A DNA stretch of 20,000 nucleotides from an uncultured virus (IMG/VR IMGVR_UViG_3300013131_000038) (IMGVR_UViG_3300013131_000038:56482-76481), one strand, 5' to 3'. Positions 1 through 18,547 are shown, counted from the first letter of the stretch. Notes: generated by a model from the sequence alone, not told the origin. Made by a program: numbers and translations.

Positions 1-624
1 GAAAAGTTCGACAAAACAAAGTTCTCGCAAGGTATTCTCCCTATTGATACTTACTGCAAGAACATCGATGAGTTCGTAACCGAAAAACTTCATTGCGATT
101 GGGAATCGCTGCGCAAAGACATCAAGCAGCACGGTATGCGCCACAGCACGCTCACTGCGATCATGCCCGTAGAGTCGAGTTCCGTTATTCAGTCATCGAC
201 AAACGGCATCGAGCCACCACGCTCGCTGATTTCGCAGAAGCGTTCAAAAGCTGGCATTATCCCAGTTGTCGTTCCTAATATCCGTTCGAAGAAGAACGAC
301 TACACGCTCGCATTTGAAATGCCAAATAACCACGGCTATCTTAAGGTTGTCGCGGCGCTTCAGAAGTTCACCGACATGAGCATCTCGACCAACTTGTACT
401 ATAACGTTAATCGTTATCCGAACAAGATTCCGAATCAAACGGAACTGCTCGGAGACATTATGATCGCTTACAAGTACGGAATTAAGAACCTTTATTACAC
501 AAATACATTTGACGGCGACACACAAACCGTCTTAGATTCAACTCCTAACCCAACCAAAGAACCCGCAAAGCAGCCAGAAACCGAAGAGGCCGATGGCTGC
601 GCTGGTGGGGCTTGCACGCTGTAA
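1..624 (+). CDS. nrdA: Ribonucleotide reductase class Ia alpha subunit, C-terminal part (5'-truncated by window)
   Basis: Frame is open from base 1 (EKFDKTKFSQGILPIDTY...DWESLRKDIKQHGMRHSTLTAIMPVESSS...TNGIEP). It contains the GIKNLYY tyrosine pair and the C-terminal redox pair CAGGAC, closely paralleling E. coli/T4-type NrdA. Confidence 0.97.
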   Translation, partial: EKFDKTKFSQGILPIDTYCKNIDEFVTEKLHCDWESLRKDIKQHGMRHSTLTAIMPVESSSVIQSSTNGIEPPRSLISQKRSKAGIIPVVVPNIRSKKNDYTLAFEMPNNHGYLKVVAALQKFTDMSISTNLYYNVNRYPNKIPNQTELLGDIMIAYKYGIKNLYYTNTFDGDTQTVLDSTPNPTKEPAKQPETEEADGCAGGACTL

Positions 625-628
625 TAAA

Positions 629-1684
629 ATGAAAACTGTACTCAACACAATTAATCTCGACTCGTTAAAGCAGCCGCTTTTCCTTGGAGAAGACTTGGCT
701 ATTCAACGGTACGACCGTTTGAAGTACCCGAAGTTTTACGAGCTTTACGACCAGCAGATCAACTTCTTTTGGCGACCCCAAGAGATCAATCTCACAAAAG
801 ATGCCGCCGATTACAAGACTCTCTCACCAGAAGAGCGTTTTGTTTTCGATAGCAATCTTCGCTTCCAGACGATGACCGACTCGATGCTTAGTCGCAGCAT
901 CAACTCGCTGTCCGATTATGTTTCGAACCCAGAGCTAGAAATCTGCATGAACGTTTGGTCGTTCTTCGAGACTGTACATAGCAATAGCTATACATACATT
1001 CTCCAGAATGTTCACCCCGACGCGACCAAGTTCTTCGACTCGATTCTCGAAGACAAGGAGATCGTGAAGCGTGCTCAAGCCATCTCTAGCCGCTACGATG
1101 CTTTGCTTAACACGCGAAGCACCGATCCTAAGCAGCAGATTCTCGATGCCCTTATCGCTACACAAATTACCGAAGGCTTAACGTTCTACGTTTCGTTCGC
1201 GTGCTCGTTCTACTTTGGCTATCGCGGAAAGATGGAAGGCAACGCAAAAATTATTAATTTAATTTCTCGCGACGAGAACCTTCACGTTGCTATCACGCAA
1301 AATATCATTAAGATCTTGCGCGATCACCCGAGCGAAGGCTTCCAAGAGCTTCTCAAGAAGAACGAAGATCGAATCTACGAGGCTTACAGAATGGCAGTGG
1401 ACGCAGAAAAGGAATGGGCCGATTATCTGTTCTCTAAGGGAAGCTTGATCGGTTTGACTGCCGACTCGTTGAAGCAATACGTTGAGTGGCTCGCGGATAA
1501 CCGCTTGACATCAATGGGTTACAATAAAATTTATAACGCTAAGTCCAACCCACTCTCTGGCTGGCTTAATAGCTTCTACGACTCCAAGAAGGTTCAGGTT
1601 GCCCCGCAAGAAACGGAAATCTCGTCCTACGTTAAAGGCGTAGATAACAAGATTGACGAATCCGTCTTCGATATTAAGTTTTAA
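629..1684 (+). CDS. nrdB: Ribonucleotide reductase class Ia beta subunit
   Basis: FFWRPQE, di-iron ligands (MTDS, ETVH, TEG, DENLH), radical tyrosine in HSNSY and C-terminal VAPQETEISSY. ATG 629, 4 nt after the nrdA stop, is preferred over 593. Confidence 0.97.
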   Translation: MKTVLNTINLDSLKQPLFLGEDLAIQRYDRLKYPKFYELYDQQINFFWRPQEINLTKDAADYKTLSPEERFVFDSNLRFQTMTDSMLSRSINSLSDYVSNPELEICMNVWSFFETVHSNSYTYILQNVHPDATKFFDSILEDKEIVKRAQAISSRYDALLNTRSTDPKQQILDALIATQITEGLTFYVSFACSFYFGYRGKMEGNAKIINLISRDENLHVAITQNIIKILRDHPSEGFQELLKKNEDRIYEAYRMAVDAEKEWADYLFSKGSLIGLTADSLKQYVEWLADNRLTSMGYNKIYNAKSNPLSGWLNSFYDSKKVQVAPQETEISSYVKGVDNKIDESVFDIKF

Positions 1685-4600
1685 GTGTCGAGGTAGAGAG
1701 TATCGGCGTTCAGATCGACCCAACCTTTCGGCGTAAACTCAAGAACTACTTGTTCATTTGGTTTTACGACCGTTAAGGTTGGGGATTCTGCCGCTTCGCC
1801 ACCGTCTCTATAAACAACGTAAACATCAGCAGCCTTACCGAACGCTGGCTTGTTTACGAACGTTACAGTATAACCAATTGGCGGATTCGATGGAATTTCA
1901 ACCGTTGAATCGCTGATTGGCGTAACAATCTTAGTGTCATTCAGATCGTCTGGAGATAGCGTCAAATCAATCGTGCTTTCTAGCACAACGTAGCCTCCGC
2001 TGCCAGTTATTGTTTGACCGTTGTAAACGAACACAACGCCAGCTAGTCCAGACTTTGCGCCGATAGTCGTCCAGTTAACGGTTCCTTGAACCGTGATCTT
2101 GTAGCTCCTATTAACCATCAAGTTCGAGCCTGTGGCTTCGATTTGTGGTCTTTCTGCTGCATTTACTGGTGCAGGAGGACGCTTGCCATCAAGAATGTAT
2201 TCGGTATAGGTAACTGCTGGTGGCTCGTCGGCTCTATCTTCCAGATAGCCGCTAACAACTGGGGACATTACGCCAGTGCCAAAGTCGTCTCTCGGCAGGA
2301 ACTTGAAGTAGTACCATTGCTCGCGTTGAATCGTTGGCCCGCCAAGCTCAATAAGGTTCAAGTAAGAGCGGCTTGGGATAGGATAGATAGCGTGCAAGTT
2401 ACTTCTCGTATCTGTGTCTGGAGTAAATGCTTCAGAACTACCAGTATAAATGTCTACCGAAAGAACGTCTTTGTTCGAAGATGCTGAGTAACAATAGAAT
2501 TTAATCGCATTATAAGACACGCGATCTTGAACGACGGAAACTGCAACGCCCGAGAAGCCAGTTTGGTTTGCGTTAGTGATGTCGGCAAAATCGGCAGTAC
2601 CCAAAATATTACCCTTTGTTCTTGGAAGAGTTCTCGCCTCTTCATAACCGTAAGTTTCCCAATGCTCTCTTCCCCAAGCGTCTTTTGTCTTTGTGCCGCC
2701 TTGCAATACTTCCGACTCATAAGCGTTCAGCAAATCGGGCCACTCGTTGACATAAGCTTCGTAGCTAGGATCGCCAAGACCAGAGTAGTTAATGTCGATA
2801 CCATTTAGAGTAGCAACGCCAGCAGAGCTTAATCCTGTTGCAGACTTGAATGCTCCAGAGATATCTCTGAACGTGATTTCACGATCAGCATTCTCGCTTC
2901 TTAACAGATCTCCAGCACTTGCGCCAGCAGACCAATCTCTAATACCCGAGCCGCTAACGATATTGTTTTCCCCACTATTCCAAACTGCGACTCTTGTGAA
3001 CGAAGAGTTCCCGTAGTAGCCCGAGAAAACATAATAGGGCGAGAACTGATAAGAGTCTACTACGTCAATTTGAGAGTATGCTGGAGCAACATTGTAAGCG
3101 TCGAAAGTTCCTGTAAATGGATTATTATTTACGTCTCTTACGACGACTCTTAGTCTATAGTTTCTTTGCGCAGGAGAATCGGTAGTCTTGATGTCTGCCG
3201 TTGTGCCGCGCATCGAGTATTCTTGATTTTTCTCTTTTGTTAGCGTATACGAGAAGCCTTGATAGCCAGTATTGGATTCTAGTAAAGTTCCACCATCAGA
3301 GTATAGTTGAACAACGATATTCGGAGCGTCTGGGAAGAACGGATTGTTTCTGAGAGAATCTGGTGAATTGATTCTGTCGCCAACGGGATCAACGTAAGAC
3401 CAGCGGAACGTCAAATCTTTTGACGTGAAGTTCCCTTGCCCAACTCCCGAGAATGTTGCTCCGTAAGTAATGTTGTATCGCAAGCTTCCAGTATCCGCTG
3501 TATCAAGGTAGAAACCAGTGATCGCGACTCTATCTAACGATGTGCCGCCAATTGTTGCGGTGGACAATGGAAGAGCGACTGCGCTTATTGATGCTGAGTC
3601 TTCGGACAAGAATCGATACGGCGTAGCTCCTTGAGCGTAGATATTGATATCGTACTGTCCCCAGTTTGAGTTAACTGGAATCGTGTAGTCGAGAGAAGAC
3701 GTTGATACGGCTTCAGTAATTGCTCCCGGTACTGAACTTGAGTAGTCTGGGCGGCTAATATAAAGCTTATAAAGTGGCGGCGAACTTGGAGAAGCTCCCC
3801 AGTTAACATAAATGCCAGTTGTGACGTTCGATTCATCTTTACGCAAAGTAGTTGTAACGGGCGTAGTTGGAGCCTGTGGCTTTACTACAAGGTCGTAAGG
3901 AGATTGAACGTAAAGGTTTGGCGAAGTGTCCGAGATGTCATTCTCGATAAAGTTTTCTTTATCTGGATAAAACTCGACGCCAGCTACCGAATAGTTATTC
4001 GCCTCTTCTTCTTTAACTGTTAGAGTCTTGTAAAGCTTTGGCTCAACACCAGAACCGCTCAACAGATAAATCGACCCATCTTCAATAAGATTAATCTTTG
4101 TTGGCAAGGTATCTACAGCTAGCGAATAGAAGCCTTTGCCATAGCCAGTTCCATAAACCAATCCGCTATAGCCAACACCATCAGTTTCGCTGAGAGTTCT
4201 GATATCTGACTGTCCGAGGGTTCCGCCTCCAACATAAACACTCAGCCCAAGCGCAGCAAACGCACCAGAAACGTGTGCGCTTGTTAAACTTGTCGTGATC
4301 GGAATCTTCGTGGAGCCATAGAAATCCTTGGGGAAACCAATGGTTCTGTGGTCGTTAATTGTTCCGGCAATCCAGTACTTTGTCTCATCCGTAGCGAACG
4401 TTGCTGAAGACGTGTGGCCAGCCTTACAGCGGTAAATAACGCCAGAAACATTTACGATCTTATCTATATCATAATAAACGCTCGCTCTCCAGTCGTCATA
4501 CTTAGAATTCGAACTGTTTCCAACATCAACATTTAAGAAAGTATAGTACGGAGTCATCTTGCTTAAAGCTAGAAGATCTCTGTAATTGAATCTAATCTTG

Positions 4601-7386
4601 CCAAAGTCATTGAGCGATTTTGATGCTCGCTCGACAATTCTTCCCGCTCCAGATGAAACTTTAACAAGAGCCGCTAAATAACCGAAAGAAGTTGAAACTG
4701 CCGAGACATCTTTGCCGATCTTCTGAACTTCTGTTGGAGCATAGGCCGCGAGTTCAGAAGGAGTTGCTGCATTATTTGCAACAGCTGCATTGTTAGACAC
4801 AATGATAACAACGTTGCCCGCAGTGCTCGCGGTTATATGCGCAGCCGCAGTAGCTAACGAGGACGACGTTGACGTTTGATTCACAAATGCTCCAGCAGTA
4901 GTTAACTGGATCGCAGTGAAAAATCCATTAGCTGCCGCTGTCCCAACTTGTGACCCATTGACCGTCACGGTTCCGTTCGTGCCGTCAACAGCACAAGACC
5001 AATTTGTTTCGTCGCCGATTAATTGTCCCGTTCCCGCCGAGCCTTGAACGTCAATATCAATTTCATTTTCGAGCAACACACCAGAAACCGCTGCGAAGTT
5101 TAATGTTTCAAAACGAGGATTTCCCGTTACAGTCGTGTTGTCTGGGAAAACATAAACCTCTCCTGTCAAAATAGTATCGCCAGTTGTTACGCCACCACCA
5201 GAAATTCTTCCTTCGATTGGGTACGTTTCAAAGATGCCAGATTTGAGCAAGAACTCGCCAGTGATTGTGATTCTCGATCCGTAAGTGTTACTACCGTCAA
5301 CACCGTCAGCTACCGTATGAATGTTGTATCTCTGTAATTGACGCTGGCGTCTCGCTCTAATATTGTTGAGCGTGCCAGTAAATTGACCAGCAGAACCAGT
5401 TAAGTTATTAAGATCCGATACCGAATAATTCCCAGAAGGGACGTGGATATAAATACCCGAGTCAAGTCCGATAGTCGATGCAGTTCCTTGCTTAAACTCG
5501 CCATCGATAGTGACGACATTAGTCGCTTCGTTAACATCTAAGATGCGCCCAAATGTTCTTGCAGTGTTCTTAACTTCGTCGCTGACCGAGAAGATATCGC
5601 CCGGTTGCAGGAACGCAGCCTCAACGCCGCCAACGAACGACACGATGTCAGACTCGAACATCGAAGAACACAAGACGTAGCGTCCAATTCTGCGAGCCTC
5701 TGAGCGTGAAGTGCAACCAGCAGCGTTGATTTTAAATGGATTTAAGCCGAACTTACGAATGCCGTCAACATCTTCAATATACTCTACCTTGGTTTTGTAA
5801 CCATCATACTTATCGTTATAAACGACTTCTACGGAAGTATATCTGACGTTTCGCGCCGTTTCGCTATACTCGAAAAGACCGTCTCGAACATTTGCATTCG
5901 AGAACTGCATAACAGGATCTTGTGGTCTATCGGCGTAAAAAGAGAAACCTTCCGTGTTCCAGTAAACGATGCCCTTAAATACGGCTGAGACATCGCGCAA
6001 TACATTGTAAGCCTCGTCTTTATTGTAGAAGATGATGTTGTATGTGTAGCGTGGCTCTAAGCCACCTTTGCCGTCTGGAACGCCTCGAAAAATACCCTTA
6101 TCATCTACAGCGTCACAATACCTACCGATATCGTAAAGCGTCCACTTGTCGAGTGACGAAAAGTCGATTTGGTTGCCCAAACCATAATTCGTATTCGTGA
6201 TGATATCGTAAAGAACCCAAGCTGGATTATCGGTCCAGCCTAACTTGAACGTGCCATCCCAATCACCGTAGTAAACCTTGTTGCTATCGTAAAACTTATC
6301 GTCACAGAACTGCTGAAAATCGATATCAGAGTCGTGGAGCATATTGAACGCACCACCATTTACTTTTGCCGAAAGTTCTCGGAATGTTCTAGTTCCAGAA
6401 GACGAAGCGTTGCTGTAGAAATAATAAAGCTGAACGCAGTTTTCAGTCGAGTATCTGAACAGAGCATCGTAAGTCGATTCGGTCATCGACTCTGGACTTG
6501 CTCCTCCGAAGAAAACAACTTTTCTTACCGTGTTCGACCAAAGAGAGTCAACAACAACCGATTCAAGCTCTTTGCCCATTTCGCGATTCGATGCGTAGAG
6601 ATTCTTTCTGATTAAATATGAAACTGCTCCGACTTCACTATAAGCGGCAGAGACGGTGCTTTCTTGCAGTAGCGTATCGAGCTTAGTAAAAAGATTTTGA
6701 TTGTTTTCTCCAGCAGAATCTGGCGAGCGAACAGTTATGAACGATTCCGAATCGTAATATGAGAAGTTCGTTAGCGTTGGGCCATTGATGACGCTATAGC
6801 TGACGCTGCTATCCACTTTCCAAATTGCTGCCCTTACCGCAGTATAACCAGCGGTCATCTTCGCAATCATTTCTTTTAAATTCCGACGAATCAAAGCCTT
6901 ATTCGCAAATGTCATATTCTTGTCTACGACAAAAATAATATCTAGATTATTTGGATTAGCCGGATAGTTTGCGCTTGGGTAAACATAACGACGGTCAAGA
7001 CCGTTTCCGCCCAATGGATAGTAATTGGACGGGATCTTAATCTTCTTCATTCGCACGTCGAATGCGCGTTCTGGAAAATTCGCAAAGGTTCGCGAATCAA
7101 ACTTTACTCCAACGTGAGCTGTTAGCGGATAAGAGAAATTGCGATCAATAACTTCTGTGATACTATCTACATAAACTTCGCGCCTAACGAGCGGAGAAAT
7201 AGTTTCTTCGCTGCGCTTTTCAATCTTGATGTAGCGATCTTTGCCATTTACTGATTCTGGTAAAACGATTTCATCAACTCCTTCAGATACATTCGTTGAA
7301 TCAACTGACTTTTGAAAAGCCGTTTGGTTCGCGTCGATTGGATCTTCCGCTCCTCTTAAGAATCTAAATGGATTTAACATTTTCAT
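1681..7386 (-). CDS. Lambda gpJ-like tip attachment/central tail protein, C-terminal portion (1901 aa) with multiple inserted domains
   Basis: Motifs collinear with lambda J: EVIDRNFSYPLTAHVG..FDS, IPSNY, GDWDGTFKLGWTDNPAWVLYD, RYCD...VPDGKGGLEPR, GCTSRSEARRIGR, LQPGD. FN3-like segments occur further C-terminal. The J N-terminal CEGPIEG region is absent and is found in 7949-8791. Confidence 0.9.
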   Translation of the reverse strand: MKMLNPFRFLRGAEDPIDANQTAFQKSVDSTNVSEGVDEIVLPESVNGKDRYIKIEKRSEETISPLVRREVYVDSITEVIDRNFSYPLTAHVGVKFDSRTFANFPERAFDVRMKKIKIPSNYYPLGGNGLDRRYVYPSANYPANPNNLDIIFVVDKNMTFANKALIRRNLKEMIAKMTAGYTAVRAAIWKVDSSVSYSVINGPTLTNFSYYDSESFITVRSPDSAGENNQNLFTKLDTLLQESTVSAAYSEVGAVSYLIRKNLYASNREMGKELESVVVDSLWSNTVRKVVFFGGASPESMTESTYDALFRYSTENCVQLYYFYSNASSSGTRTFRELSAKVNGGAFNMLHDSDIDFQQFCDDKFYDSNKVYYGDWDGTFKLGWTDNPAWVLYDIITNTNYGLGNQIDFSSLDKWTLYDIGRYCDAVDDKGIFRGVPDGKGGLEPRYTYNIIFYNKDEAYNVLRDVSAVFKGIVYWNTEGFSFYADRPQDPVMQFSNANVRDGLFEYSETARNVRYTSVEVVYNDKYDGYKTKVEYIEDVDGIRKFGLNPFKINAAGCTSRSEARRIGRYVLCSSMFESDIVSFVGGVEAAFLQPGDIFSVSDEVKNTARTFGRILDVNEATNVVTIDGEFKQGTASTIGLDSGIYIHVPSGNYSVSDLNNLTGSAGQFTGTLNNIRARRQRQLQRYNIHTVADGVDGSNTYGSRITITGEFLLKSGIFETYPIEGRISGGGVTTGDTILTGEVYVFPDNTTVTGNPRFETLNFAAVSGVLLENEIDIDVQGSAGTGQLIGDETNWSCAVDGTNGTVTVNGSQVGTAAANGFFTAIQLTTAGAFVNQTSTSSSLATAAAHITASTAGNVVIIVSNNAAVANNAATPSELAAYAPTEVQKIGKDVSAVSTSFGYLAALVKVSSGAGRIVERASKSLNDFGKIRFNYRDLLALSKMTPYYTFLNVDVGNSSNSKYDDWRASVYYDIDKIVNVSGVIYRCKAGHTSSATFATDETKYWIAGTINDHRTIGFPKDFYGSTKIPITTSLTSAHVSGAFAALGLSVYVGGGTLGQSDIRTLSETDGVGYSGLVYGTGYGKGFYSLAVDTLPTKINLIEDGSIYLLSGSGVEPKLYKTLTVKEEEANNYSVAGVEFYPDKENFIENDISDTSPNLYVQSPYDLVVKPQAPTTPVTTTLRKDESNVTTGIYVNWGASPSSPPLYKLYISRPDYSSSVPGAITEAVSTSSLDYTIPVNSNWGQYDINIYAQGATPYRFLSEDSASISAVALPLSTATIGGTSLDRVAITGFYLDTADTGSLRYNITYGATFSGVGQGNFTSKDLTFRWSYVDPVGDRINSPDSLRNNPFFPDAPNIVVQLYSDGGTLLESNTGYQGFSYTLTKEKNQEYSMRGTTADIKTTDSPAQRNYRLRVVVRDVNNNPFTGTFDAYNVAPAYSQIDVVDSYQFSPYYVFSGYYGNSSFTRVAVWNSGENNIVSGSGIRDWSAGASAGDLLRSENADREITFRDISGAFKSATGLSSAGVATLNGIDINYSGLGDPSYEAYVNEWPDLLNAYESEVLQGGTKTKDAWGREHWETYGYEEARTLPRTKGNILGTADFADITNANQTGFSGVAVSVVQDRVSYNAIKFYCYSASSNKDVLSVDIYTGSSEAFTPDTDTRSNLHAIYPIPSRSYLNLIELGGPTIQREQWYYFKFLPRDDFGTGVMSPVVSGYLEDRADEPPAVTYTEYILDGKRPPAPVNAAERPQIEATGSNLMVNRSYKITVQGTVNWTTIGAKSGLAGVVFVYNGQTITGSGGYVVLESTIDLTLSPDDLNDTKIVTPISDSTVEIPSNPPIGYTVTFVNKPAFGKAADVYVVYRDGGEAAESPTLTVVKPNEQVVLEFTPKGWVDLNADTLYLDT

Positions 7387-7388
7387 CT
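7352..7388. repeat. 37-bp imperfect direct repeat, copy 1 (start of the J C-terminal gene)
   Basis: cctcttaagaatctaaatggatttaacattttcatct matches 8757-8793 at 32/37 positions. Confidence 0.9.
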
Positions 7389-7402
7389 ACTAGTAAATAT
7401 TA

Positions 7403-7936
7403 TTATGTAATCGAGAATGTTCTAACCCCATCTGTGCCACCAGTTAACTTTGTTAAGCCCTTTGGCGATTGGGCGTTGATATAAACAGTATGTGTTCCCG
7501 TAGCGAGCTTCGAAGTCACATCGGCTGGGATCGTAAATGAAAACACTCCCGTAGTGGTGTTAATGTCTGTGCCGTTTGCGTAAATGACTTGTGGCGTATT
7601 CCCATTACTAGCTGGACTATCTATATGAGCCGCCAAGGATAATGTTGGAGTAAGAATTGTGGTAGCTCCAAGAGTCCTGTTGAACGTTGCCGTTCCGGTC
7701 AGTGTGATAGTGGCTCCCTTAGCGTAACTTGAACTAGAAAGAGCATCAAAAGTAGCGGCTGTTCCCGCACCCTCTCCAACCAAAGTATAAACATAGTTTT
7801 GTACCGTAGTGTATGGATTTGAAAATGGCGACGTTGAAAGCTTTTTTAAATAATAGATAACCCCCAAAACCGTCGAATAGTTCCGTTTATTGATTTTCGT
7901 CGCCGCTAACTGTTCTGGAGTATATTGAATAGACAT
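7403..7936 (-). CDS. Hypothetical Thr/Ser/Gly-rich protein with probable C-terminal Ig-like beta-sandwich; likely virion-associated
   Basis: 177-aa ORF co-oriented with the tail genes. Pattern TITLTGTA...GVFSFTIP...LATGTHTVYINAQ resembles bacterial Ig-like domains. Confidence 0.65.
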   Translation of the reverse strand: MSIQYTPEQLAATKINKRNYSTVLGVIYYLKKLSTSPFSNPYTTVQNYVYTLVGEGAGTAATFDALSSSSYAKGATITLTGTATFNRTLGATTILTPTLSLAAHIDSPASNGNTPQVIYANGTDINTTTGVFSFTIPADVTSKLATGTHTVYINAQSPKGLTKLTGGTDGVRTFSIT

Positions 7937-7948
7937 TTTTTATGGGAC

Positions 7949-8791
7949 TTAAAAGCCGGGAGGAAGCGTCTTTTTAAAGTCGTCGTTCAAGTCAATTGGT
8001 GGAATATTTACTCTTGTGCTGGCTCCACCAACCGACGAAGCGGGATTGAAATTGGTATTTGTTGCCGCGTAGTAAGCACCATCAGTGGTTTCGCCTTCTG
8101 AAATCGAGTCGTCGCCGATAGTATATGCATACGGGCTTTGAACCAATCCGTAGAAACTAACATCTCTAATTTGTAAATTAGACTCTCCATCCAATCCCCA
8201 GTATAAACGCAAGAGAAGCGTCGATTCTTTGGCTGTTCCAGCTTTTGTTCCCTCATCTACAGTATCCGCCAAAGCTTCAATTAAAAAGTTTACACGAAGC
8301 TTTTTGACATCGCGGTTTCTGATTTGATGAGTAAATATGAATGGGTCTTGTGGTGTCGTCGGCCAACCATCGGTTGAACGCGCCCAGCTTGTAAAGTTTC
8401 TGCCATCTAACTTAACGTCGTCCTGCATCGTGATCGGGCCGAGCAGTTTAAAGCTTGCTGGTTTAGAGATGTAAACGTTTTTAAAGTTGACTAAAGCTTT
8501 TTGTTTCTCTGTACCAAAGTTTACTTCGAGGAGAATGTTTCTGTAATTGTATTCTCCACTAACGTTCATAACTGGAACGCCATTCAAATAAACTCCCTTT
8601 AGCATATCTAGGCCATAAACTTTTTTGCCAAACGGATCGACAATACCTTCGATTGGACCCTCGCAAAGCAAGTCAACGATTTCTGCCACAGAAATAGACT
8701 TCTTGAGTTTCTTGCCCTCGTCTGGCGGCAGAAGTTTAGCCTCGGATGTTCCCATCCCTCTGAAAAATCTTAATGGATTTAGAATTTTCAT
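7949..8791 (-). CDS. Lambda gpJ-like tip attachment protein, N-terminal portion (280 aa)
   Basis: IVDLLCEGPIEG, GVYLNGVPV, GTEKQ and GLVQSPY match the N-terminal region of J-like proteins. The start is placed at ATG 8791 (TAAGATG, 1 nt after the gpI stop), not 8878. Confidence 0.85.
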   Translation of the reverse strand: MKILNPLRFFRGMGTSEAKLLPPDEGKKLKKSISVAEIVDLLCEGPIEGIVDPFGKKVYGLDMLKGVYLNGVPVMNVSGEYNYRNILLEVNFGTEKQKALVNFKNVYISKPASFKLLGPITMQDDVKLDGRNFTSWARSTDGWPTTPQDPFIFTHQIRNRDVKKLRVNFLIEALADTVDEGTKAGTAKESTLLLRLYWGLDGESNLQIRDVSFYGLVQSPYAYTIGDDSISEGETTDGAYYAATNTNFNPASSVGGASTRVNIPPIDLNDDFKKTLPPGF

Positions 8792-8793
8792 CT
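8757..8793. repeat. 37-bp imperfect direct repeat, copy 2 (start of the J N-terminal gene)
   Basis: cctctgaaaaatcttaatggatttagaattttcatct matches 7352-7388 at 32/37 positions. Confidence 0.9.
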
Positions 8794-11759
8794 TAGAATA
8801 TAGATGGGAGTGACTGAATCGGAGGAACGCTTCTCTCGATGCTTTCGTTTTGCGTTGACAAGAAAGTAACGCCAACACGAATTGTCGGAGACAAATACTT
8901 ATTCACTCCCTTTGTAATCTCACACTGCCAGAAAGAAACATACTTAGCGTAGCCTGTGTCTTCACGTTCCGAAGTGAACGTCACTAGTCTTTGGCTGTCT
9001 GCTTGAACTGCCGCAAGATCGATAACTTCAGAAGCGAATGCTCCTGTGCCGGAAAATGCTGTAGAGTTCTTTAAGAACACTGTGCCAACTGTTGCCGACG
9101 TTGCGCCAACACTAGTCCAATTAGCTGCCGTGCCGACAACATTGATTCTGTACTTCTTGCCAGCGACCATTGAAGATGCGGCGATATCTCCGCGTTGTGT
9201 ATAGATCGGAGAATTTGGAGCGATCAAATTAGAATCGGTCTTGCGGTTGAGAAGCTGATTTTCTCCAACCACAGTGAACGAAGCCGCGCCAGTCTTTCTG
9301 TAAGAAATCTTAATCTTGTTTCTGCCGACACCAGTTCTAAGTCTGGCGTAAATTCTATGATATCCGCTCGTTAGCGTAACGGGCGAAACTGTTGGAGACG
9401 AGTCTACGTCGTGACTCGACGCTAAGATTCCGTTAACGTACAAATCGGCAAAAGCGTCGTTTGTTTCGAGACATTCGATCTTAAAGTCGTAAGAATTTAC
9501 TGGCGCGACCTTTCCGTTTCCAGTTGCAGCAGTCGCGTTCTTTGTAAACGTCATGCCAACAACAGGAGGAACCGAGCCAACGCCAATCGTTGACCACTGA
9601 GCGGAAGTGCCAACTTTTGTAATCTCGTAAACAGTGCCGCTATTCGCTGAAATAACGCTAATTTCTCTCACAGCTAGCGGATCGGTCGAGATGATGTCGG
9701 TGTTCTTGTTTAATGGGATATAGAAGTAGCCCAAAAATTCGAGCGTGTAGTTGCCGACATCAGAAGCGTTACTGTTGATCTCTGAAATATTTACTGCCGA
9801 GAAGTCGCCAGTATAGAGGTTTTGATTGATTGGCAACTTGACATAACTCAAATAAGTGTCGAAAGTGCCAGACGCTGTTGGAATAGTTTCCGCTGTCCAG
9901 AAAGAGCTGTCAGTAGGCAACTTGCCCTGAGCATTAGACGTTGCGCGGTAAATTTGCTCTCTGATCGGTGGGATAAATAGTGACCAGAAATTATTCACTC
10001 CGCTAGTAAACAATTTTACAACGGCGCTGATTTTTGTTTGATCTAGGATATCGGCGCTTTCTGCAACTACCGTGTAAGTTTCGGAACCGCTAGGCGATCC
10101 GCTCAACGTATAAGTAAAGGTCGTGTCGCTCGTTGTTGTGATCGTGTACGTTCCGTTAGGATCTACTGCGCCAGTCAAGTTTGCAATCTGCGCCGAAGTT
10201 CCCGTGATTTCCGAAAGAACAATCGGATTGAAAGGAGTGGCCGAGTTTCCAAGAGTGATCGTCACTACCGCATTGCTGCGAGTTGCGCTTGCAATATACG
10301 ACTTAGCGAGTGGAGGGTGCGTGTTTAACACCGCTCTACCAGCGGTTACTGTATAAGTTTCCGTTCCCGTATCCAAAGTAGCTAATGTGTAAGTGAATTG
10401 ATTTGCGGCAGTTACGGTAATATTGTAGTAGCCGTTTGCATCAACATTGCCAGTGCTCAGTCCAGAGATCGTCGCTTTGAAGTTGCTTGCGAAATTATGA
10501 TTCGAAGAAGTCGTAATGGTTACGGTTGCTCCAGATCGACTCGCCGCCGAGATAGTTGCGTCGGCGGGAATACTCGTTGTGCATCTAAAGAAAATGCTAC
10601 TTAACGTAACAATTTCTCCGCTAACGTATCGAGTGTTATTGTCCCAAGCCGATTTTGGCAACGCCTCGAATTGCGATGGCCCCCAAATAACCAAAGAGTT
10701 AGTCGGGTATAAAATCATGTAATTCGAATCGGTGCGGTTTTGCGCAGCGTTCGAAATTAATTGAAACTCTTGCGGGCGAGCGAAACGATAGAGCGCACCT
10801 TCAGAAAACGAGTAAGAATTTTCCTGCTGAATCGCGCTCTTTGTCGAATCTGAAGAAGACAATTGCTTCCATTTGTACGTCAAATCTTCATTGTACGTTG
10901 ACAGATTTGGGTTCGAAATAATCTCACCGTCTTGCTTTACTCGAAGCTCAACGATGTTAGACGAAACTTTTTTAGCGGACTTCGTAACGATATCAATGTA
11001 CGACTGCGAGAGAGAAACATCGACAACTGAAACCGCATCTTCGAATACGGCAGTTTGATTCGAACGATACCCGTCGATTTCAAGTTCATCAATACCTTCG
11101 TAAGCTGGGATAGCGTCAATCGGCCTTGAAGTTGGCGTCATCAAAGCCTTCACATCGTAATTTAAACGATAATTATTGATCGAGGCGCTGATTTGCGAGC
11201 TGCCGATGATTAGTCTGCCATAGCCAACTGGAACGGCTTGACCTTGAGAAGTGTTGCTCGGCTTGCTTCCGAAAAGATAAGACTTGCCGCCCGCAGAAAC
11301 TTCTTGATTAAAGTCAGGTTTGGGCGTTGGGAATAATAATCCCATGACGCCCTGCGTCAATAATGCAGCACCAACAAGTATACCGGCTTTCGCAGCAGTT
11401 CCACTGAGAATTGCTAAACCACCAGCAGCACCGAATCCGCCCGAGATTGTGATAAGCGCAACAGCCGCGACAATCAAAAGAATATTCTTTACGCTATCTC
11501 CAGCGCCCCACACCACAGGAACCAAATGAATTTCTTGTGGCGTTTTAATGATGTCGAGTTCGAGAGGATCTTCGATAACTTGATCATCAACAACGATTCT
11601 GTAAAATACACCTTTCGCCGCCAGCTTCTTTAACGCGGCCAAAAAGCCGCGACGATTTGCATTGATCGCAGTAAACGCTTCTCTTGGTTTCGAAATGTTG
11701 TATCGAAACTCATGACCAAACAAGTTGCGTAGTTCGCCGTATAGATAAATGTTAGTCAT
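8793..11759 (-). CDS. Lambda gpI-like tail assembly protein (ubiquitin-like N-terminus) with ~790-aa multi-domain C-terminal extension
   Basis: N-terminal IYLYGELRNLFG...EIHLVPVVWGAG, then a Gly/Ala hydrophobic stretch, SYLF and QGQAVPVGYGRLIIGS, all typical of gpI. Located between the K-like and J-like genes. Confidence 0.88.
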   Translation of the reverse strand: MTNIYLYGELRNLFGHEFRYNISKPREAFTAINANRRGFLAALKKLAAKGVFYRIVVDDQVIEDPLELDIIKTPQEIHLVPVVWGAGDSVKNILLIVAAVALITISGGFGAAGGLAILSGTAAKAGILVGAALLTQGVMGLLFPTPKPDFNQEVSAGGKSYLFGSKPSNTSQGQAVPVGYGRLIIGSSQISASINNYRLNYDVKALMTPTSRPIDAIPAYEGIDELEIDGYRSNQTAVFEDAVSVVDVSLSQSYIDIVTKSAKKVSSNIVELRVKQDGEIISNPNLSTYNEDLTYKWKQLSSSDSTKSAIQQENSYSFSEGALYRFARPQEFQLISNAAQNRTDSNYMILYPTNSLVIWGPSQFEALPKSAWDNNTRYVSGEIVTLSSIFFRCTTSIPADATISAASRSGATVTITTSSNHNFASNFKATISGLSTGNVDANGYYNITVTAANQFTYTLATLDTGTETYTVTAGRAVLNTHPPLAKSYIASATRSNAVVTITLGNSATPFNPIVLSEITGTSAQIANLTGAVDPNGTYTITTTSDTTFTYTLSGSPSGSETYTVVAESADILDQTKISAVVKLFTSGVNNFWSLFIPPIREQIYRATSNAQGKLPTDSSFWTAETIPTASGTFDTYLSYVKLPINQNLYTGDFSAVNISEINSNASDVGNYTLEFLGYFYIPLNKNTDIISTDPLAVREISVISANSGTVYEITKVGTSAQWSTIGVGSVPPVVGMTFTKNATAATGNGKVAPVNSYDFKIECLETNDAFADLYVNGILASSHDVDSSPTVSPVTLTSGYHRIYARLRTGVGRNKIKISYRKTGAASFTVVGENQLLNRKTDSNLIAPNSPIYTQRGDIAASSMVAGKKYRINVVGTAANWTSVGATSATVGTVFLKNSTAFSGTGAFASEVIDLAAVQADSQRLVTFTSEREDTGYAKYVSFWQCEITKGVNKYLSPTIRVGVTFLSTQNESIERSVPPIQSLPSIF

Positions 11760-12114
11760 AACGTTTCTTTAACATATCAACGTATTCTTTCTTAACGTGC
11801 GATACCTTGGGCATCACCAAGTTGAATTCTTGAGTCTGCTTGCTGTAAATAAGATAAGGAATGCAAGAATTGTCGCAATTGAACTGGTCGAACTTCGACT
11901 CGTCTTCGCCCGTCTTTGGGTGCGAGTGATAGATCGCAACAAGATTACCCGAACGAATCTTCTTCAAGATTTCGAGCGGATGAATCTCAAATATATTATC
12001 GGCGTAAGTGGCAATGTTCTTCGCTGGCTCAGTTTTCAGTTCGCCGTTCTCAACGGTTACGAATCCGCAAACTTCCAAATCGGACGATAAAGCGTGTTCA
12101 ACGATTGTAGTCAT
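11752..12114 (-). CDS. Lambda gpK-like JAB/MPN+ (JAMM) metalloprotease, stand-alone with no NlpC/P60 domain
   Basis: EVCGFV plus HSHPKTGEDESKFD, an intact E...HxH-x7-S-x2-D JAMM motif. Located between L and I. Confidence 0.9.
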   Translation of the reverse strand: MTTIVEHALSSDLEVCGFVTVENGELKTEPAKNIATYADNIFEIHPLEILKKIRSGNLVAIYHSHPKTGEDESKFDQFNCDNSCIPYLIYSKQTQEFNLVMPKVSHVKKEYVDMLKKRYD

Positions 12115-13094
12115 TACTGATTAAAATTGATCGGGTACTCCTCGGTTCCCGGAAACCCACCGAACGGTAATTCTGCATTTTCACCAAAGCGCAGCTTGCA
12201 GCCGCCGATAGACTTTGAGCACTGATCTGCCATCCAGAACTCTTTATTGATAGATGGATTTTTGCCTGCGGTAGCAGTATGAGCCTTAACGCAAATATAG
12301 AACTTTTGAAGCGGTTTCCAGTTTGGGTTCGCGTTGATATTCTCTTCCGAGACTTTTACATTCGTGTTTTCAACGTAAACGTAGTCGGCTATCGAGTAGC
12401 TTGTGCCGGGCGTCCAGCGTCCTTTATTCACTTTGGTTGCTAAAGACGTTGACGTGCCAGCTTCAATATTGATAGCATTCTCGAACAATTGATTATTATC
12501 GTCAGCTACTGGAGGACCATTGAATCCGCATCCGTTGCCGCGATAATGAAACGAACAGTAACGCGACATTACGATACGCTTCGGGAACGTGACGCTATCG
12601 AGTTCAAGAGGCGAAGCGAGTTCAAGCTCAACGATTGCCCGATTTTCGGACGAACGGCGCAGAACGAAAAAGACTTGATCTTCTAGCCCAGCAGTTGCAT
12701 CTGCGGCACCGTATGGATTCTTCGAGTCCGAAAAGTTAACGTTGTCCAAGAACTTAAGGAACGTTCTCTTACGGACAACTTTTGCGCCAATAAGGTTGTT
12801 ATAACGGCGAATAAGGTTCGAAACAAAGAAGTCTTGGTTCGAAATAGTTAGTTTCGGGCGCGGAAGCGAGCCGTCACCCTTGGTCTCGAAGCCTGAGCTT
12901 TGGATCGGAAATGGCAAATACTCCTGACCTTGCCAGTAGATCGAACCGTTTATCCCATTTGTGCCGCCATGAATGTAAAGTTGTTGGTCAGGTTGATTAA
13001 CGTAGTCGTAATAAATAACAAAAAACTCCAAAAGAGCCGTTGGCTCTAGTGAAAAAAGCTCCGCATTGACTTTCTGGTTAGACTCCCTTGACAT
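12114..13094 (-). CDS. Lambda gpL-like minor tail (tail tip) protein
   Basis: IYWQGQEYLPFPIQSSGFE, LPRPKLTISN, GAKVVRKRTFLKFLD, ELELASPLEL, four cysteines (CSFHYRGNGC ... CSKSIGGC; Fe-S ligands in lambda L) and terminal LPFGGFPG. Confidence 0.93.
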   Translation of the reverse strand: MSRESNQKVNAELFSLEPTALLEFFVIYYDYVNQPDQQLYIHGGTNGINGSIYWQGQEYLPFPIQSSGFETKGDGSLPRPKLTISNQDFFVSNLIRRYNNLIGAKVVRKRTFLKFLDNVNFSDSKNPYGAADATAGLEDQVFFVLRRSSENRAIVELELASPLELDSVTFPKRIVMSRYCSFHYRGNGCGFNGPPVADDNNQLFENAINIEAGTSTSLATKVNKGRWTPGTSYSIADYVYVENTNVKVSEENINANPNWKPLQKFYICVKAHTATAGKNPSINKEFWMADQCSKSIGGCKLRFGENAELPFGGFPGTEEYPINFNQ

Positions 13095-13124: not shown

Positions 13125-13604
13125 ATGAGCGATAAAAACCAGATAAAAATCGAGGGTTCAGAAGCCGCTCAGATGCGACTCAACGATATTCCCGATGTTT
13201 TGAGGCTGGCGACCAAAGCTCAGGCTCAATTCAAACTTTTCCCGATAGACTCGCCATCAACGATTTTGAGGGAAATATCACTTGTTTTGCAGAAAAACTT
13301 TAGAAATTCCGTCATTTTCCACGCAGAAGACGAAGTTGTCGCTGCGTTCATTTTACGCGCCGAGACGAGCGTTTCGGCAGAACTCGTTTACAGTTTCACG
13401 TCGTCGGAAGAGCTTTTGACAGCAGAAATGGCCGAAAAGTTTAAAAAAACGCTGACAAAACTAGGATTTTTGGTAATAAATGCGAAAATTCAAACTAGCC
13501 GTAGAGACCTTGACTCGCTTTTAACGTTTTTAAAAGATGTTGGTTTCAATGAGATTTCGAGCGAAAACGATGCTTTCGTGTCAATTCGCATCAGAATAGC
13601 TTGA
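13125..13604 (+). CDS. Hypothetical protein, possible GNAT-fold acetyltransferase-like
   Basis: Begins QMRLNDIPDVLRL, has a VVAAFIL strand and ends LTFLKDVGFNE, following the GNAT secondary-structure pattern. No clear acetyl-CoA-binding R/QxxGxG/A motif. Confidence 0.45.
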   Translation: MSDKNQIKIEGSEAAQMRLNDIPDVLRLATKAQAQFKLFPIDSPSTILREISLVLQKNFRNSVIFHAEDEVVAAFILRAETSVSAELVYSFTSSEELLTAEMAEKFKKTLTKLGFLVINAKIQTSRRDLDSLLTFLKDVGFNEISSENDAFVSIRIRIA

Positions 13605-13632
13605 CTTTTCGTTAAAAACGATAAGATTTGCG
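13601..13632 (+). promoter_or_regulatory. Candidate sigma70-like promoter TTGACT-N15-TAAGATTTGCG
   Basis: Intergenic, immediately before ATG 13635. A near-identical motif occurs at 18783-18815. Confidence 0.55.
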
Positions 13633-13634
13633 GA

Positions 13635-14012
13635 ATGAAGTTCGACAGGCTCGTTCAGCTTGCCCGCAATCTTGTTATCTACGATAATATCGATTTGCGC
13701 TGCCGTCATTTCGCTTTTATCCTCGATAAGAAGCGGATCATTGCTATCGGCAAGAACTCAAAAAAGTCTCACCCGATTAACCACAAGTACGGTTACTTCG
13801 ACGGTTCTGGACTGCACGCCGAAGCGTGCGCAGTTATCAAGTCGGGTCACATTGACCACTCGAAACACACGCTCGTCACGTTTCGCATCGACCGAAACGA
13901 TAAGGTCGCGATGGGTAAACCGTGCAAGCATTGCGAAAAACTTCTAAAAGATGTTGAATTTAAGAATATTTTCTATTCTAATGAAGAGGGAGAGTTCGTT
14001 CGCGCCAAATGA
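13635..14012 (+). CDS. Cytidine/dCMP deaminase-superfamily Zn-dependent deaminase
   Basis: RHFAFI..IIAIGKN, LHAE and KPCKHC zinc-binding/catalytic motifs. Confidence 0.88.
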   Translation: MKFDRLVQLARNLVIYDNIDLRCRHFAFILDKKRIIAIGKNSKKSHPINHKYGYFDGSGLHAEACAVIKSGHIDHSKHTLVTFRIDRNDKVAMGKPCKHCEKLLKDVEFKNIFYSNEEGEFVRAK

Positions 14013-14998
14013 ATATTTTAATTATCGAAGCTACTAGCAAACGCAAGCCGCTTGCAGAAGACTACAGCGACACGTCAATCGTTCACTGCCGCAACAGCAT
14101 TATCTTAAAGAACGCTCTAGGAGCCGATCTTCTTGACGGGGAGTACGCACTACCCCAAGTGCTCGAAAAGCAGTATGACGTGATTATATGCGCCTACGCT
14201 TCGCCTTATATGCCGCACGTTCCGTACCGCGAGATCATCAAGAAGAACCCGAAGGCTCGGTACATTTGGCTCGTTAACGATCACGACATCGAAGACAATC
14301 AACTTTTGCGTTGGGGCGTCATTGAAATGGGCCTCAAGTACGACATGATCTGCAACAATCCGCGAAACGGATATCGGCACTGGATCTTGAACAAGAACAT
14401 CGCAAATAAGAAATTGAACGACTTTATTGGCGAGTGGCTCACGGTAAATCTCAACTCGCTGATCATGGACGACTTTGCTCCCGTAGACTTGACTGCCAAG
14501 AGCGGGATCATTTACTACGGTACTTACAGAAAGTGGCGTCAGAATTCTTTCGAGCGTTTTTTGACAAAAGGAGTTACGCTCTCGGCTTCGAACAAAAATT
14601 GGAAAAAATTTCAAGCAATCAATTGCGATTGCAATTACATCCCGAAGCTAGAGTGGACAAAGAACAACGAAGATTTACGCAAATATAAATATTCGATATA
14701 CATGGAAGACGTGCATACTCGCGACAATTATGCCTATCTCGCAAATCGCTTCTACGAAGGATTAATGGCAGACACGGTCGTGTTGTTCGACTCGGAATGC
14801 AAAAACACAATCGAGAAGTGCGGGTACTCGTTGTCCGAGAACGTTATCGTCACGCCAGAAAAATTATCGATTGGCTTGACGAACTACGTTGAAACGCTCA
14901 ACTTTGAAACTGAATTAAACCATCAGCGGTCATTTCTCGTTAAAGCTTACGGCGAAAAGCGAGACACGATCAACCAAATAAAAGATTTTATTAAATGA
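14009..14998 (+). CDS. GT-B glycosyltransferase resembling T4 DNA beta-glucosyltransferase
   Basis: IIYYGTYRKWR...FL and IYMED..TRDNYAYLANRFYEGLMADTVVLFDSE parallel T4 BGT as recalled (VIYGGSFRSGQR..FL; LIIGD..YNDNFITLRVWETMASDAVMLIDEE). Similar length (329 aa); ATGA overlap with the deaminase. Confidence 0.72.
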   Translation: MNILIIEATSKRKPLAEDYSDTSIVHCRNSIILKNALGADLLDGEYALPQVLEKQYDVIICAYASPYMPHVPYREIIKKNPKARYIWLVNDHDIEDNQLLRWGVIEMGLKYDMICNNPRNGYRHWILNKNIANKKLNDFIGEWLTVNLNSLIMDDFAPVDLTAKSGIIYYGTYRKWRQNSFERFLTKGVTLSASNKNWKKFQAINCDCNYIPKLEWTKNNEDLRKYKYSIYMEDVHTRDNYAYLANRFYEGLMADTVVLFDSECKNTIEKCGYSLSENVIVTPEKLSIGLTNYVETLNFETELNHQRSFLVKAYGEKRDTINQIKDFIK

Positions 14999-15294
14999 AA
15001 GCTACTGTTCGTTTCGTTATCTCAAGCGTCTCGGCGTCCGAAATCGGCATTGATTTTCGCGAACTCTACGTCGTCGAACTAAACGATTATCAATTCGAAG
15101 GAGCCGAAGGTGGACAATATGTGACTTGTAAAATCGTTAATACCAATAAATTCGCGCCGTTTCTTCTTGAAATCGCAGAGATTTCTTTCTGCGCCCATTC
15201 TTTAGTGATTCGCGCATGGTTCGTTTACAACTTCGAGAAAGAGAAAGAGTCTCGTTTATTTCGCGGTTCACTAGAAATTCGAGGAATTCACTAA
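14995..15294 (+). CDS. Hypothetical protein
   Basis: 99-aa ORF abutting both neighbours; no motif recognised. Confidence 0.6.
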   Translation: MKATVRFVISSVSASEIGIDFRELYVVELNDYQFEGAEGGQYVTCKIVNTNKFAPFLLEIAEISFCAHSLVIRAWFVYNFEKEKESRLFRGSLEIRGIH

Positions 15295-15295
15295 T

Positions 15296-15514
15296 ATGAA
15301 TCGATACGCTATTCTCAAAGATATTATTGTTCAAGCCGATTGCCCAATCGAAGACAGGTCTAGCGACCGAGTTGTTTTGCCGAGCGGTGAAGAAATTCCG
15401 GTTTACGGAGAAACATTCGACTTGTTCGACGCATCTCTTCGTTACTGGACAACTGGCAGCGGCTGGGTGTTAAAAATCACCGATAACGACTTACCTTACT
15501 TTAAAAAGATTTAA
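15296..15514 (+). CDS. Hypothetical protein
   Basis: 72-aa ORF with 1-nt gaps to both neighbours and GAGGA 10 nt upstream. Confidence 0.6.
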   Translation: MNRYAILKDIIVQADCPIEDRSSDRVVLPSGEEIPVYGETFDLFDASLRYWTTGSGWVLKITDNDLPYFKKI

Positions 15515-15515
15515 T

Positions 15516-16172
15516 ATGATAACAAAAGAAGAAAGCGAGAAAAAAGTTTTTTCCGAATTTTTGCTTGTTAAAAACAGCGCTGAAAAAATTCTTGGCAAAA
15601 CAATCAAAAACGAAGAGTTTAAACGGGCTATTGCCGACGTATCCAAAAAGATTATTGTTTTGGCGCGAAATAAAGAAGATAAAGATAATACGCTAGTCGA
15701 TGACATAAAAGCGTTTATCGAATTTTTTGACAATTGCAAGCATCTTCTCAGGAATACTGTTTGGAACGAGATACAAGAAAAGCATCTTAAAATCGAAATT
15801 TCTTACGAATCGAAAGCTATTTCGAGTTGGAAAATTCCAATCGAAATGATGTTCTCTCATCCAGAGTCGTTCGAGGTCGGTATGCCGACACTAATCGAAA
15901 GCTTCGAAGACGTGTTTCTTTATTCGTGTCTCGACCCGTCTTACCGTCAACGAATCATGCAGGGCGACGATCAAGCGATCAAGATCTTGTACTCTGTATT
16001 CCAAAATAACGGGACAAGCAGTTGCTCCGCGATTCAGCTAATGATCAAAGAAAATTTCCCCGAGTTTTACGATCACATCACGAAAAAACTCGATGTAATG
16101 AAGTTCGAGGAAATTCCCGAGGAATCGAAAGCTAAAAAAGGGAGAAAACGCAAGCAGGTGAAACACAAATAA
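15516..16172 (+). CDS. Hypothetical protein, helical, with basic C-terminal tail
   Basis: 218-aa ORF in operon context, ending KAKKGRKRKQVKHK. Confidence 0.7.
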   Translation: MITKEESEKKVFSEFLLVKNSAEKILGKTIKNEEFKRAIADVSKKIIVLARNKEDKDNTLVDDIKAFIEFFDNCKHLLRNTVWNEIQEKHLKIEISYESKAISSWKIPIEMMFSHPESFEVGMPTLIESFEDVFLYSCLDPSYRQRIMQGDDQAIKILYSVFQNNGTSSCSAIQLMIKENFPEFYDHITKKLDVMKFEEIPEESKAKKGRKRKQVKHK

Positions 16173-16176
16173 TATT

Positions 16177-17309: not shown

Positions 17310-17340
17310 CAAGCGACGAATTGTCCGATCTTCTCAAACC

Positions 17341-18246: not shown

Positions 18247-18547
18247 TGATAAAAATGCGGTTATCGCCGCCCTAAAAAGAAGAAAGATTCGTTTCGCTAG
18301 TGATCAGTTTGTCTGCGACAGCGAAGACGGAGAAAAGGGGTTTGGTTTTACTGTTGTTACCGAACTCGTTACCTCGGTTATCGTTCCCGACTACAGCAAG
18401 CGGAAAGTTGGATTTTTAATTTATAACCAGCGAATGGCAGATCACCTAGAATCCGAAGGTCTTTCGTCAGAAGAGATCGAAAAGAAGGGTAAAGTCTGGT
18501 GCGTGGTGAAAAGTCGCGCAAATTTCCTTAAGATCTTGGGTTGTTAA
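18203..18547 (+). CDS. Hypothetical protein
   Basis: 114-aa ORF filling the gap after uvsE. The start overlaps uvsE by 44 nt and is uncertain. Confidence 0.55.
   Translation: MPSLKSSTIQTKLNNDKNAVIAALKRRKIRFASDQFVCDSEDGEKGFGFTVVTELVTSVIVPDYSKRKVGFLIYNQRMADHLESEGLSSEEIEKKGKVWCVVKSRANFLKILGC

Follow-up and report, generated by a model that had tools for sequence, protein, structure and literature searches.

The window analysed here is a stretch of 20,000 nucleotides (nt) from an uncultured virus (IMG/VR IMGVR_UViG_3300013131_000038), which forms the final 20 kb of an IMG/VR viral contig 76.5 kb long. Its minus strand carries a lambda-type tail-tip operon in the order L, K, a long I, and then J, the gene of the hub/central-fibre protein, which is found in pieces, two of them opening with a similar 12-residue leader. 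The features of the operon are as follows.

12114..13094, minus strand: gene L, minor tail protein L, hub domain I (PF05100 Phage_tail_L, E 2e-54; phrog_18)
11752..12114, minus strand: gene K, 120 amino acids (aa), JAB/JAMM domain only, without NlpC/P60 (PF14464 Prok-JAB)
8793..11759, minus strand: gene I, 988 aa, TAPI-like N-terminus plus a ~800-aa extension (phrog_32)
8756..8791, minus strand: leader 1, MKILNPLRFFRG, the first 12 codons of J-N
7949..8791, minus strand: J-N (P0001), 280 aa (phrog_31, phrog_1727, lambda J alignment)
7403..7936, minus strand: small open reading frame (ORF) P0002, 177 aa, Ig/FnIII-like (conserved between the J pieces; AlphaFold2 (AF2) model)
7351..7386, minus strand: leader 2, MKMLNPFRFLRG, the first 12 codons of J-rest
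7273..7350, minus strand: acidic variable linker, J-rest residues 13-38, ahead of the conserved EIVLP...RYIKIEK strand
1681..7386, minus strand: J-rest (P0003), 1901 aa (PF13550, phrog_31)

The L-K-I-J operon context of lambda gpJ-like tip proteins is present here, with K scoring 28.7 bits against PF14464 Prok-JAB (cut-off 25), and with residues 1-195 of I matching the tail assembly proteins of phrog_32 (E 1e-35). The stop codon of I lies 1 nt ahead of the J-N start. J-N consists of the leader, a linker, the equivalent of lambda J residues 1 to ~170 (conserved up to G226), and a variable Ser/Gly/Thr-rich tail (residues 227-280). J-rest comprises the remaining FNIII-A-like region, a ~225-aa insertion (residues 145-372), the hub core and a long fibre; it matches phrog_31 with E 2e-112, and its hub core at residues 457-613 is recognized by PF13550 Phage-tail_3 (E 4.6e-18, 66 bits against a cut-off of 23). 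Both J ORFs exist as an earlier note on this DNA, prepared from the sequence alone, had described them.

The position of the break is revealed by alignment with lambda J. Residues 13-183 of P0001 align with lambda J 1-130 (E 3e-11), and a J-N profile also matches solved lambda J chains (8iyk_J, E 9e-4). Coverage of lambda J by P0003 begins at ~172-179 and proceeds through three segments, P0003 residues 53-148 aligning with lambda J 179-272, residues 370-631 with 254-511, and residues 1038-1149 with 473-601. Since J-N and J-rest align to separate segments of lambda J, they are complementary and not overlapping. The closest unsplit relative found, P0018 (1405 aa), holds both in one chain, its J-N-like part (residues 28-235) and J-rest-like part (residues 245-651) being separated by 10 residues, and sequence comparison found in it neither a counterpart of P0002 nor the ~225-aa insertion of P0003; a search for further loci of P0018 gave only more distant unsplit J proteins. 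These alignments, and the fact that P0018 runs straight across the break, bear out the earlier claims that J is split within a conserved region and that the two ORFs are halves rather than paralogues. As for the two-chain J proposed there, the split itself is well supported by homology and conservation, but the ORFs number three, the 177-aa ORF at 7403-7936 having been overlooked. The Ig-like FNIII-A domain of lambda gpJ spans residues 72-215 according to the available text of PMC10721106, so that the lambda segments covered by J-N and by J-rest place the break inside FNIII-A. The N-terminal block of the lambda gpJ-like family, ..D.ISEGPIEG.., is present, but on a separate ORF from the hub core, and the two proteins are accordingly predicted to keep the role of lambda gpJ and not its single-chain membership. 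The ~225-aa insertion of P0003 (residues 145-372; window 6271-6954, minus strand), absent from lambda J and P0018, shows a β-α-β pattern; its protein-atlas neighbours are vWA-domain clusters at 0.81, a lead only, and no DxSxS MIDAS motif was seen within it.

This layout is not peculiar to the window. A viral-contig search with P0001 retrieved 61 loci at 46-100% identity, and in all 60 that show the J-N start it carries a leader of the form [M/V]KILNxxRFxxG (L058 is cut by the contig end, and L033-36 start with GTG). A homologue of the small ORF comes next in 58/58 loci reaching far enough, followed by J-rest where the contig extends, and metagenome contigs supply 46 family loci with the three-gene layout, many of them the same contigs under other names. 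Logan contigs from four lake/freshwater runs, none flagged as a possible source of the window, cover or bridge 7250-8143, 7421-8143 and 8024-8900 without joints or loose ends (X4 record 4, 7250-8143; X5 records 12 and 13, 7250-7450 and 7421-8143; X7 record 27, 8024-8900). Because it recurs in related viral loci and in independent lake-metagenome contigs, the three-gene layout is not an assembly artefact, and the assembly check over the J junctions that the earlier note had called for gave no sign of misassembly. A misassembly, a frameshifted pseudogene, or two paralogous J copies might be suspected from one short (4.4-kb) contig, L062:1166-2070, in which J-N is broken into ORFs of 54 and 193 aa by a sequencing error or as a decayed copy. 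Such a reading is already contradicted by the 61 viral and 46 metagenome loci and their range of identity, by the bridging of the junctions, by the complementary J coverage, by variable intergenic spacings with no common frame, and by two in-frame stops between J-N and the small ORF, and its probability is negligible. Joining of the J pieces by read-through, frameshifting, an intron or an intein was also considered, and is ruled out by the same two stops, by the different frame of J-rest, by spacers between the J-piece ORFs that vary across loci (-29 to +21 nt and 10 to 19 nt), and by the small ORF being an ordinary Ig-like gene. By homology, then, the hub/central-fibre protein J is encoded by three consecutive genes in a freshwater phage lineage, in an arrangement fixed in every relative found.

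The protein between the two halves was modelled by AF2 (pLDDT 85.1) as two N-terminal helices and an Ig/FnIII-like β-sandwich, for which Foldseek returned generic β-sandwich matches only (E ~5e-4, TM 0.3-0.57). Library scans assigned P0002 to no Pfam or PHROG family, and fused forms of it, sought among longer proteins, were not found, which is weak evidence. Further additions occur in its vicinity. Two J-N relatives of 512-518 aa, P0005 and P0006, end in a LamG-like domain (PF13385) that follows the variable tail, and one relative, L025, has doubled the small ORF (L025:4938-6367, also L258: a small ORF of 350 aa with a second domain, and an extra 129-aa ORF before a leader-bearing J-rest). The LamG-like additions and the doubled ORF mark the break region as a hot spot for added domains, and domains added here are probably exposed. 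A remark in the accessible part of PMC13243795, describing hub chain breaks as foci of hypervariability, is consistent with such a hot spot.

The leader is the second unusual element of this J. In the window a degenerate pattern built from the two leaders matches only 7351-7386 and 8756-8791, with 0 matches expected in 200 shuffles, and a repeat search recovers the pair (family D3) as 37 nt of 86% identity at a spacing of 1405. Their 12 codons differ at 6 bases, three of them synonymous (L4 CTA/TTA, F9 TTT/TTC, G12 GGG/GGA) and three exchanging hydrophobic residues (I/M, L/F, F/L), and the likeness ends after Gly12; the earlier description of a 37-bp repeat at both ORF starts, with this pattern of changes and an abrupt end after the Gly, was accurate. 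As Met1 of lambda J aligns with Met13 of P0001, the leader extends the protein N-terminally beyond the lambda start. In 22 aligned J-N proteins ~50% identical to that of the window, residues M1, K2, I3, L4, N5, R8, F9 and G12 are invariant, and the linker after leader 1 varies in length and sequence. Codon use is free by comparison, I3 being written ATT (15) or ATA (17), L4 with six codons, and G12 with all four, in a tally of leaders collected by a pattern requiring those residues, from which only codon variety, not invariance, is taken. These invariant residues, at which synonymous codons vary, confirm the leader as a selected peptide, as had been proposed. In L025 the two leaders encode the same peptide with 5 synonymous and 0 non-synonymous base differences, which argues that leader 2, where present, is kept by selection on the peptide and not by recent conversion. 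Recent gene conversion as the source of the likeness was rejected on these synonymous differences and on the finding that leader 2 (26-31/36 nt identical to its own leader 1) is no closer to it than to leader 1 of other genomes.

Beyond J, the leader is scarce. A collection-wide scan with the back-translated motif gave 95 stretches, and in the 80 loci read from it the matches head J-N or J-rest, except for 3 ORFs of 10-37 aa and one 206-aa ORF found twice. The latter (L139:1501-2118, = L102) is an unrelated ORF of no PHROG family that starts with MKILNPRRFKAG and adjoins a gene of a virion structural protein family; its leader-like head could be chance or a further carrier. A type IV prepilin-like leader (G|F/M-xxx-E followed by a ~20-residue hydrophobic helix) does not describe either start, P0001 reading G12|MGTSE without a hydrophobic stretch and P0003 reading G|AEDPI. 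The AF2 model of J-N alone (mean pLDDT 42, leader ~28) is too poor for a fold search or for placing the leader.

A related peptide opens many unsplit J proteins. When the J-N alignment was used as a search profile, 502 proteins were retrieved at E <= 1e-3, and 149 of the best 150 were classified, P0005 being left out. Among these 149, seven are short proteins with the MKILN-type leader, 69 have other starts, and 73 have an MKH-type head (pattern M[KN]H..KK....G[AG]G), such as MKHLLKKISIAG followed by AGGGKKPKP; 68 of the 73 have at least 700 aa and are unsplit J proteins. The MKH-type head closes with Gly at position 12 in 43/73 proteins and at position 14 in 25/73, and M1, H3 and G12 are invariant in 23 aligned proteins of this type. 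A distant unsplit J begins MSKTKLIQIRG and continues SGGGKGG, and lambda J starts straight with the Gly/Lys-rich part. What recurs is a peptide of 11-14 residues beginning M-[KN] and ending in Gly, a Gly/Lys/Pro-rich linker, and an xLxPP...D(L)(I)(SC)(ED)GPI block, features that are found in the window as well and correspond to no named family. On three contigs of metagenome-assembled genomes (MAGs), two of them labelled Bacteroidota or Flavobacteriaceae, an MKH-type J follows L, a K with the JAMM motif, and I; this operon context was taken from genome contigs, the viral-contig loci close to the MKH-type P0040 amounting to one distant locus only. A further MAG contig, labelled Promethearchaeota (L161:1533-10563), has, besides L and a K with the JAMM motif, two I genes in tandem (491 and 482 aa) and a J of the MKH type, and is probably a phage contig binned by mistake. 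Unsplit J proteins thus carry a homologous 12-14-mer once, which is what the earlier note had proposed to look for. The 12-residue leader is the native N-terminus of J in this lineage, a short cationic and hydrophobic peptide that did not originate with the split; it is the lineage's form of the 12-14-residue N-terminal peptide and Gly-rich tether found on unsplit J proteins of a large group of L-K(JAB)-I-J phages.

The distribution of the second leader is sporadic. It is found in 11/53 viral loci with a visible J-rest start and absent in 42/53; in a set of distinct loci, from which 23 duplicates were removed and 11 loci dropped because J-N could not be parsed or the J-rest fragment was missing or < 150 aa (L012, L015, L022, L027, L038, L043, L049, L053, L058, L061, L062), and to which the window was added, it is present in 6/28, the window included, and absent in 22/28. 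The earlier claim that each J piece needs the leader independently is not supported by these counts, which correspond to a refuting case that the earlier note had itself named, homologues in which the second leader is not conserved. In J-rest proteins without the leader, the distance between the start and the small ORF is unchanged, and Met is followed by an acidic Asp/Glu/Asn/Gly-rich tail. Where present, leader 2 keeps the form M K [IM] L N P x R F x [RK] G, its codon 3 being Met (ATG) in the window and Ile (ATC) in related strains, L003 and L010 among them; three independent lake/freshwater runs have G instead of C at window position 7378 (+ strand), which gives Ile at this codon. The six leader-2 loci fall into three clades on both the J-N and the J-rest tree, with 3 changes on each, and forcing them into one clade, a group named after the tree was seen, costs 128.6 log-likelihood units (approximately unbiased (AU) test p 6e-39). 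Both trees are midpoint-rooted only, and are compatible with three gains of leader 2 as well as with one ancestral copy and many losses; an ancestral copy would fit a split arising by partial tandem duplication. Transfer of a leader-plus-tail cassette between clades is unlikely, as the residues after leader 2 resemble those of each clade's leaderless sisters.

Taken as a whole, the best explanation of these observations combines a three-gene J, a native head peptide, and a docking or assembly tag, and is judged moderately probable. Its parts are not equally secure: the architecture and its evolution are held with considerable confidence, and a docking/assembly tag, the likeliest function of the leader among those considered, is put forward tentatively, with chances somewhat below even. 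By homology, the two J chains would reassemble non-covalently through β-strand complementation inside the split domain, with the small Ig-like protein as a putative added component of the tip. The leader may be a portable tethered recognition peptide, acting on whichever chain bears it, that would bring this chain into the tail-tip initiator complex, where K, I, L and the end of the tape measure are candidate partners, and it would possibly be trimmed afterwards. Several points weigh against this explanation. Any leader partner in the tip is a candidate only, and trans-complementation of the split domain is predicted from homology, the model of J-N alone being poor (pLDDT 42). The leader is no more similar to the C-terminal tail of the ubiquitin-like domain (Ubl) of I than expected by chance. 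In GC content both leaders rank in the bottom three of 56 ORF starts, and Shine-Dalgarno (SD) motifs accompany 6/56, so that a role in translation initiation is possible, and as most lineages are without leader 2, any function on J-rest is dispensable.

The adjoining K and I genes suggest another role for the leader, that of a cleavable pro-peptide as already raised in the earlier note, a minimal Gly-ended substrate resembling a ubiquitin tail that the JAB protease K would cut from each J piece. K has a predicted zinc site E14...H63-S-H65-x7-S73-x2-D76 (H63-S-H65-PKTGEDE-S73-KF-D76), in keeping with the JAMM motif E...HxHx7Sx2D, which is intact here and in 21/21 related loci with K in range. 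I has the apparent TAPI organization of a Ubl ending in a conserved Gly, a Gly-rich linker and a plug; its N-terminal Ubl ends EIHLVPVVWGAG and is followed by a Gly-rich hydrophobic stretch and the plug, and the tail E[IVM]H[IL][VI]P..WGAG recurs in all 22 I proteins examined. Iyer et al. 2006, in the available portion of PMC1779556, predicted that the JAB domain of K frees the Ubl from I by a cut at the last Gly of that domain, and pointed to fusions of I (TAPI) to J. Such Ubl-J fusions occur among the profile matches (P0020, P0039, P0156, with the junction ...VVPLISGEGGGKGK), an invariant Gly ends every leader with a flexible linker next, and the start of lambda J coincides exactly with the leader end. 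In the lambda virion, gpI is resolved only from residue 101 (available text of PMC11101478), which by count is just after ...VAGAKSG. Against cleavage stand the length of the leader, only 12 residues, and the lack of a β-grasp domain before its Gly: the leader opens the ORF, and a stop is reached after 0-37 in-frame codons upstream. The resemblance to the ubiquitin C-terminus that the earlier note had seen is at chance level when scored against the phage's own I Ubl tail (ungapped BLOSUM62 0-3, equalled or exceeded by 17-29% of 1609 phage 12-mers ending in G). Moreover, the absence of leader 2 from 22/28 distinct loci implies that not every piece needs it, the strong conservation of residues 1-5 (MKILN) exceeds what a P-side tail mimic would need, and lambda has K, yet its J is without a leader. 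Co-folding of K (alignment A3) with J-N residues 1-60 (A1) and Zn, run without controls, scored 0.00 and is evidence neither way. A Gly-ended pro-peptide cut by K is a fair hypothesis on the points in its favour, though an unlikely one. Its bolder form, in which the head peptide would be a portable pro-sequence of the phage ubiquitin-like processing system, trimmed by K without a β-grasp body as an assembly checkpoint and then gained or kept three times downstream as a tag, is improbable.

Two other readings dispense with cleavage. The 36 nt may act mainly as RNA, an A/U-rich unstructured start ensuring strong initiation in a non-SD host, with the J-rest copy boosting or balancing expression. 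The leaders have a GC content of 22-26%, against 45% in the window, and are the 2nd and 3rd lowest of the 56 ORF starts; their residues (K, I, L, N, Y, F, and R as AGA) are those of A/T-rich codons, and I and J-N, being 1 nt apart or overlapping, would be translationally coupled. Throughout the contig (G000:C1), GGAG/GAGG/AGGA precedes 6/56 ORFs of at least 150 aa, and the upstream regions are 66% A+T, which fits a host with weak SD use. Composition alone, however, would permit free exchange among K, N, I, F and Y, and what is found instead are invariant residues with free third positions (the I3, L4 and G12 codons tallied above), conservative substitutions (R/K; Y/F/L/I), the purely synonymous differences of the L025 copies, and H3 and G12 invariant in the MKH-type. 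This codon-level pattern argues that the peptide itself is the conserved thing, leaving an RNA role quite unlikely. Alternatively, the mature protein may retain the leader, as a flexibly tethered cationic and aromatic peptide on the distal tip face, where it would contact the host envelope (lipopolysaccharide or outer membrane) during adsorption or opening, the second set on J-rest adding avidity. In its favour are the 2-3 Lys/Arg and the Phe/Tyr/Leu residues followed by Gly/Lys/Pro-rich linkers in both MKILN- and MKH-types, and the extra LamG-like domains on J-N of relatives, suggesting an exposed location. In lambda, as described in the accessible sections of PMC11101478, opening makes the first strand of J HDII-ins1 swing towards the membrane, and the tip is wrapped at its bottom by the FNIII domains. 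The specific invariance of N5, R8 and F9, however, goes beyond a generic amphipathic anchor, the linker after leader 2 is strongly acidic, and the family is known from sequence rather than structures; little probability is assigned to such an envelope contact.

The remainder of the operon also departs from lambda. I of this phage has 988 aa versus 223 aa in lambda, and its extension contains two similar ~75-aa segments (..VTITTSSNHNF..NGYYNITVTAANQFTYTL.. and ..VTITLGNSATPF..NGTYTITTTSDTTFTYTL..) together with weak CBM_5_12 matches; this extension may be a fibre-like appendage anchored via the plug. About 40 kb separate the L-K-I-J operon from the gene of the 2191-aa tape measure and the genes around it, which are on the opposite strand; the operon is flanked by ribonucleotide reductase alpha and beta genes on one side and by dCMP deaminase, UvdE endonuclease and GHKL ATPase genes on the other (flanking genes read at window 1-1684 and 13125-19998; tape-measure side at G000:C1 10996-24015, L240). 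Given this distance, the opposite strand, and the non-tail flanking genes, the tail module is dislocated.

Comparison with known systems delineates what is new. Lambda gpJ (PDB 8IYK and related) has in common with the present J the N-terminal region, the PF13550 hub core and the L-K-I-J context; here, unlike in lambda, J is in pieces, broken in the FNIII-A equivalent with an Ig-like gene between, and has the added 12-aa leader, the ~225-aa insertion, and a much longer fibre (1901 aa). Hubs are divided differently among phages, the available text of PMC10721106 describing one chain in T5 (pb3), gpL, gpI and gpJ in lambda, and gp13 and gp15 in RcGTA, the latter two having the HDII-insertion domain in common. 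Judged against that text, the likeness lies in a hub fold formed by several polypeptides, with breaks in or near the HDII-insertion and one two-chain domain, and the difference in an extra break within J itself, which falls in the Ig-like FNIII-A insert and holds a further gene. Division of hub proteins over several chains is known, then, and the new element is a break inside an Ig-like J domain with an Ig-like gene placed in it; literature searches found no description of a break inside J FNIII-A with an extra gene. The predicted K/I Ubl-processing system is resembled in that a K with intact JAMM adjoins an I with a Gly-ended Ubl, and in the existence of Ubl-J fusions, but differs in that K lacks the NlpC/P60 half, I has 988 aa, and the J leader is of 12 residues. 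Short N-terminal leaders removed by a dedicated protease are found in L27 and in the capsid and scaffold proteins of phage 80alpha, which are cut by Prp. With these, the J leader shares a short conserved N-terminal peptide common to several structural proteins of one phage, but it has another motif and another spacing, and no protease of the Prp type was seen, no test having been aimed at one.

The arrangement is fixed across a group of lake phages and would be a naturally occurring case of two chains completing one domain; its break is a candidate split site for engineering J-type receptor-binding proteins. Literature searches found no description in print of a conserved J head peptide, and this peptide provides a handle on two open points, namely the substrate of the JAB protease K and the entry of J into the initiator complex.

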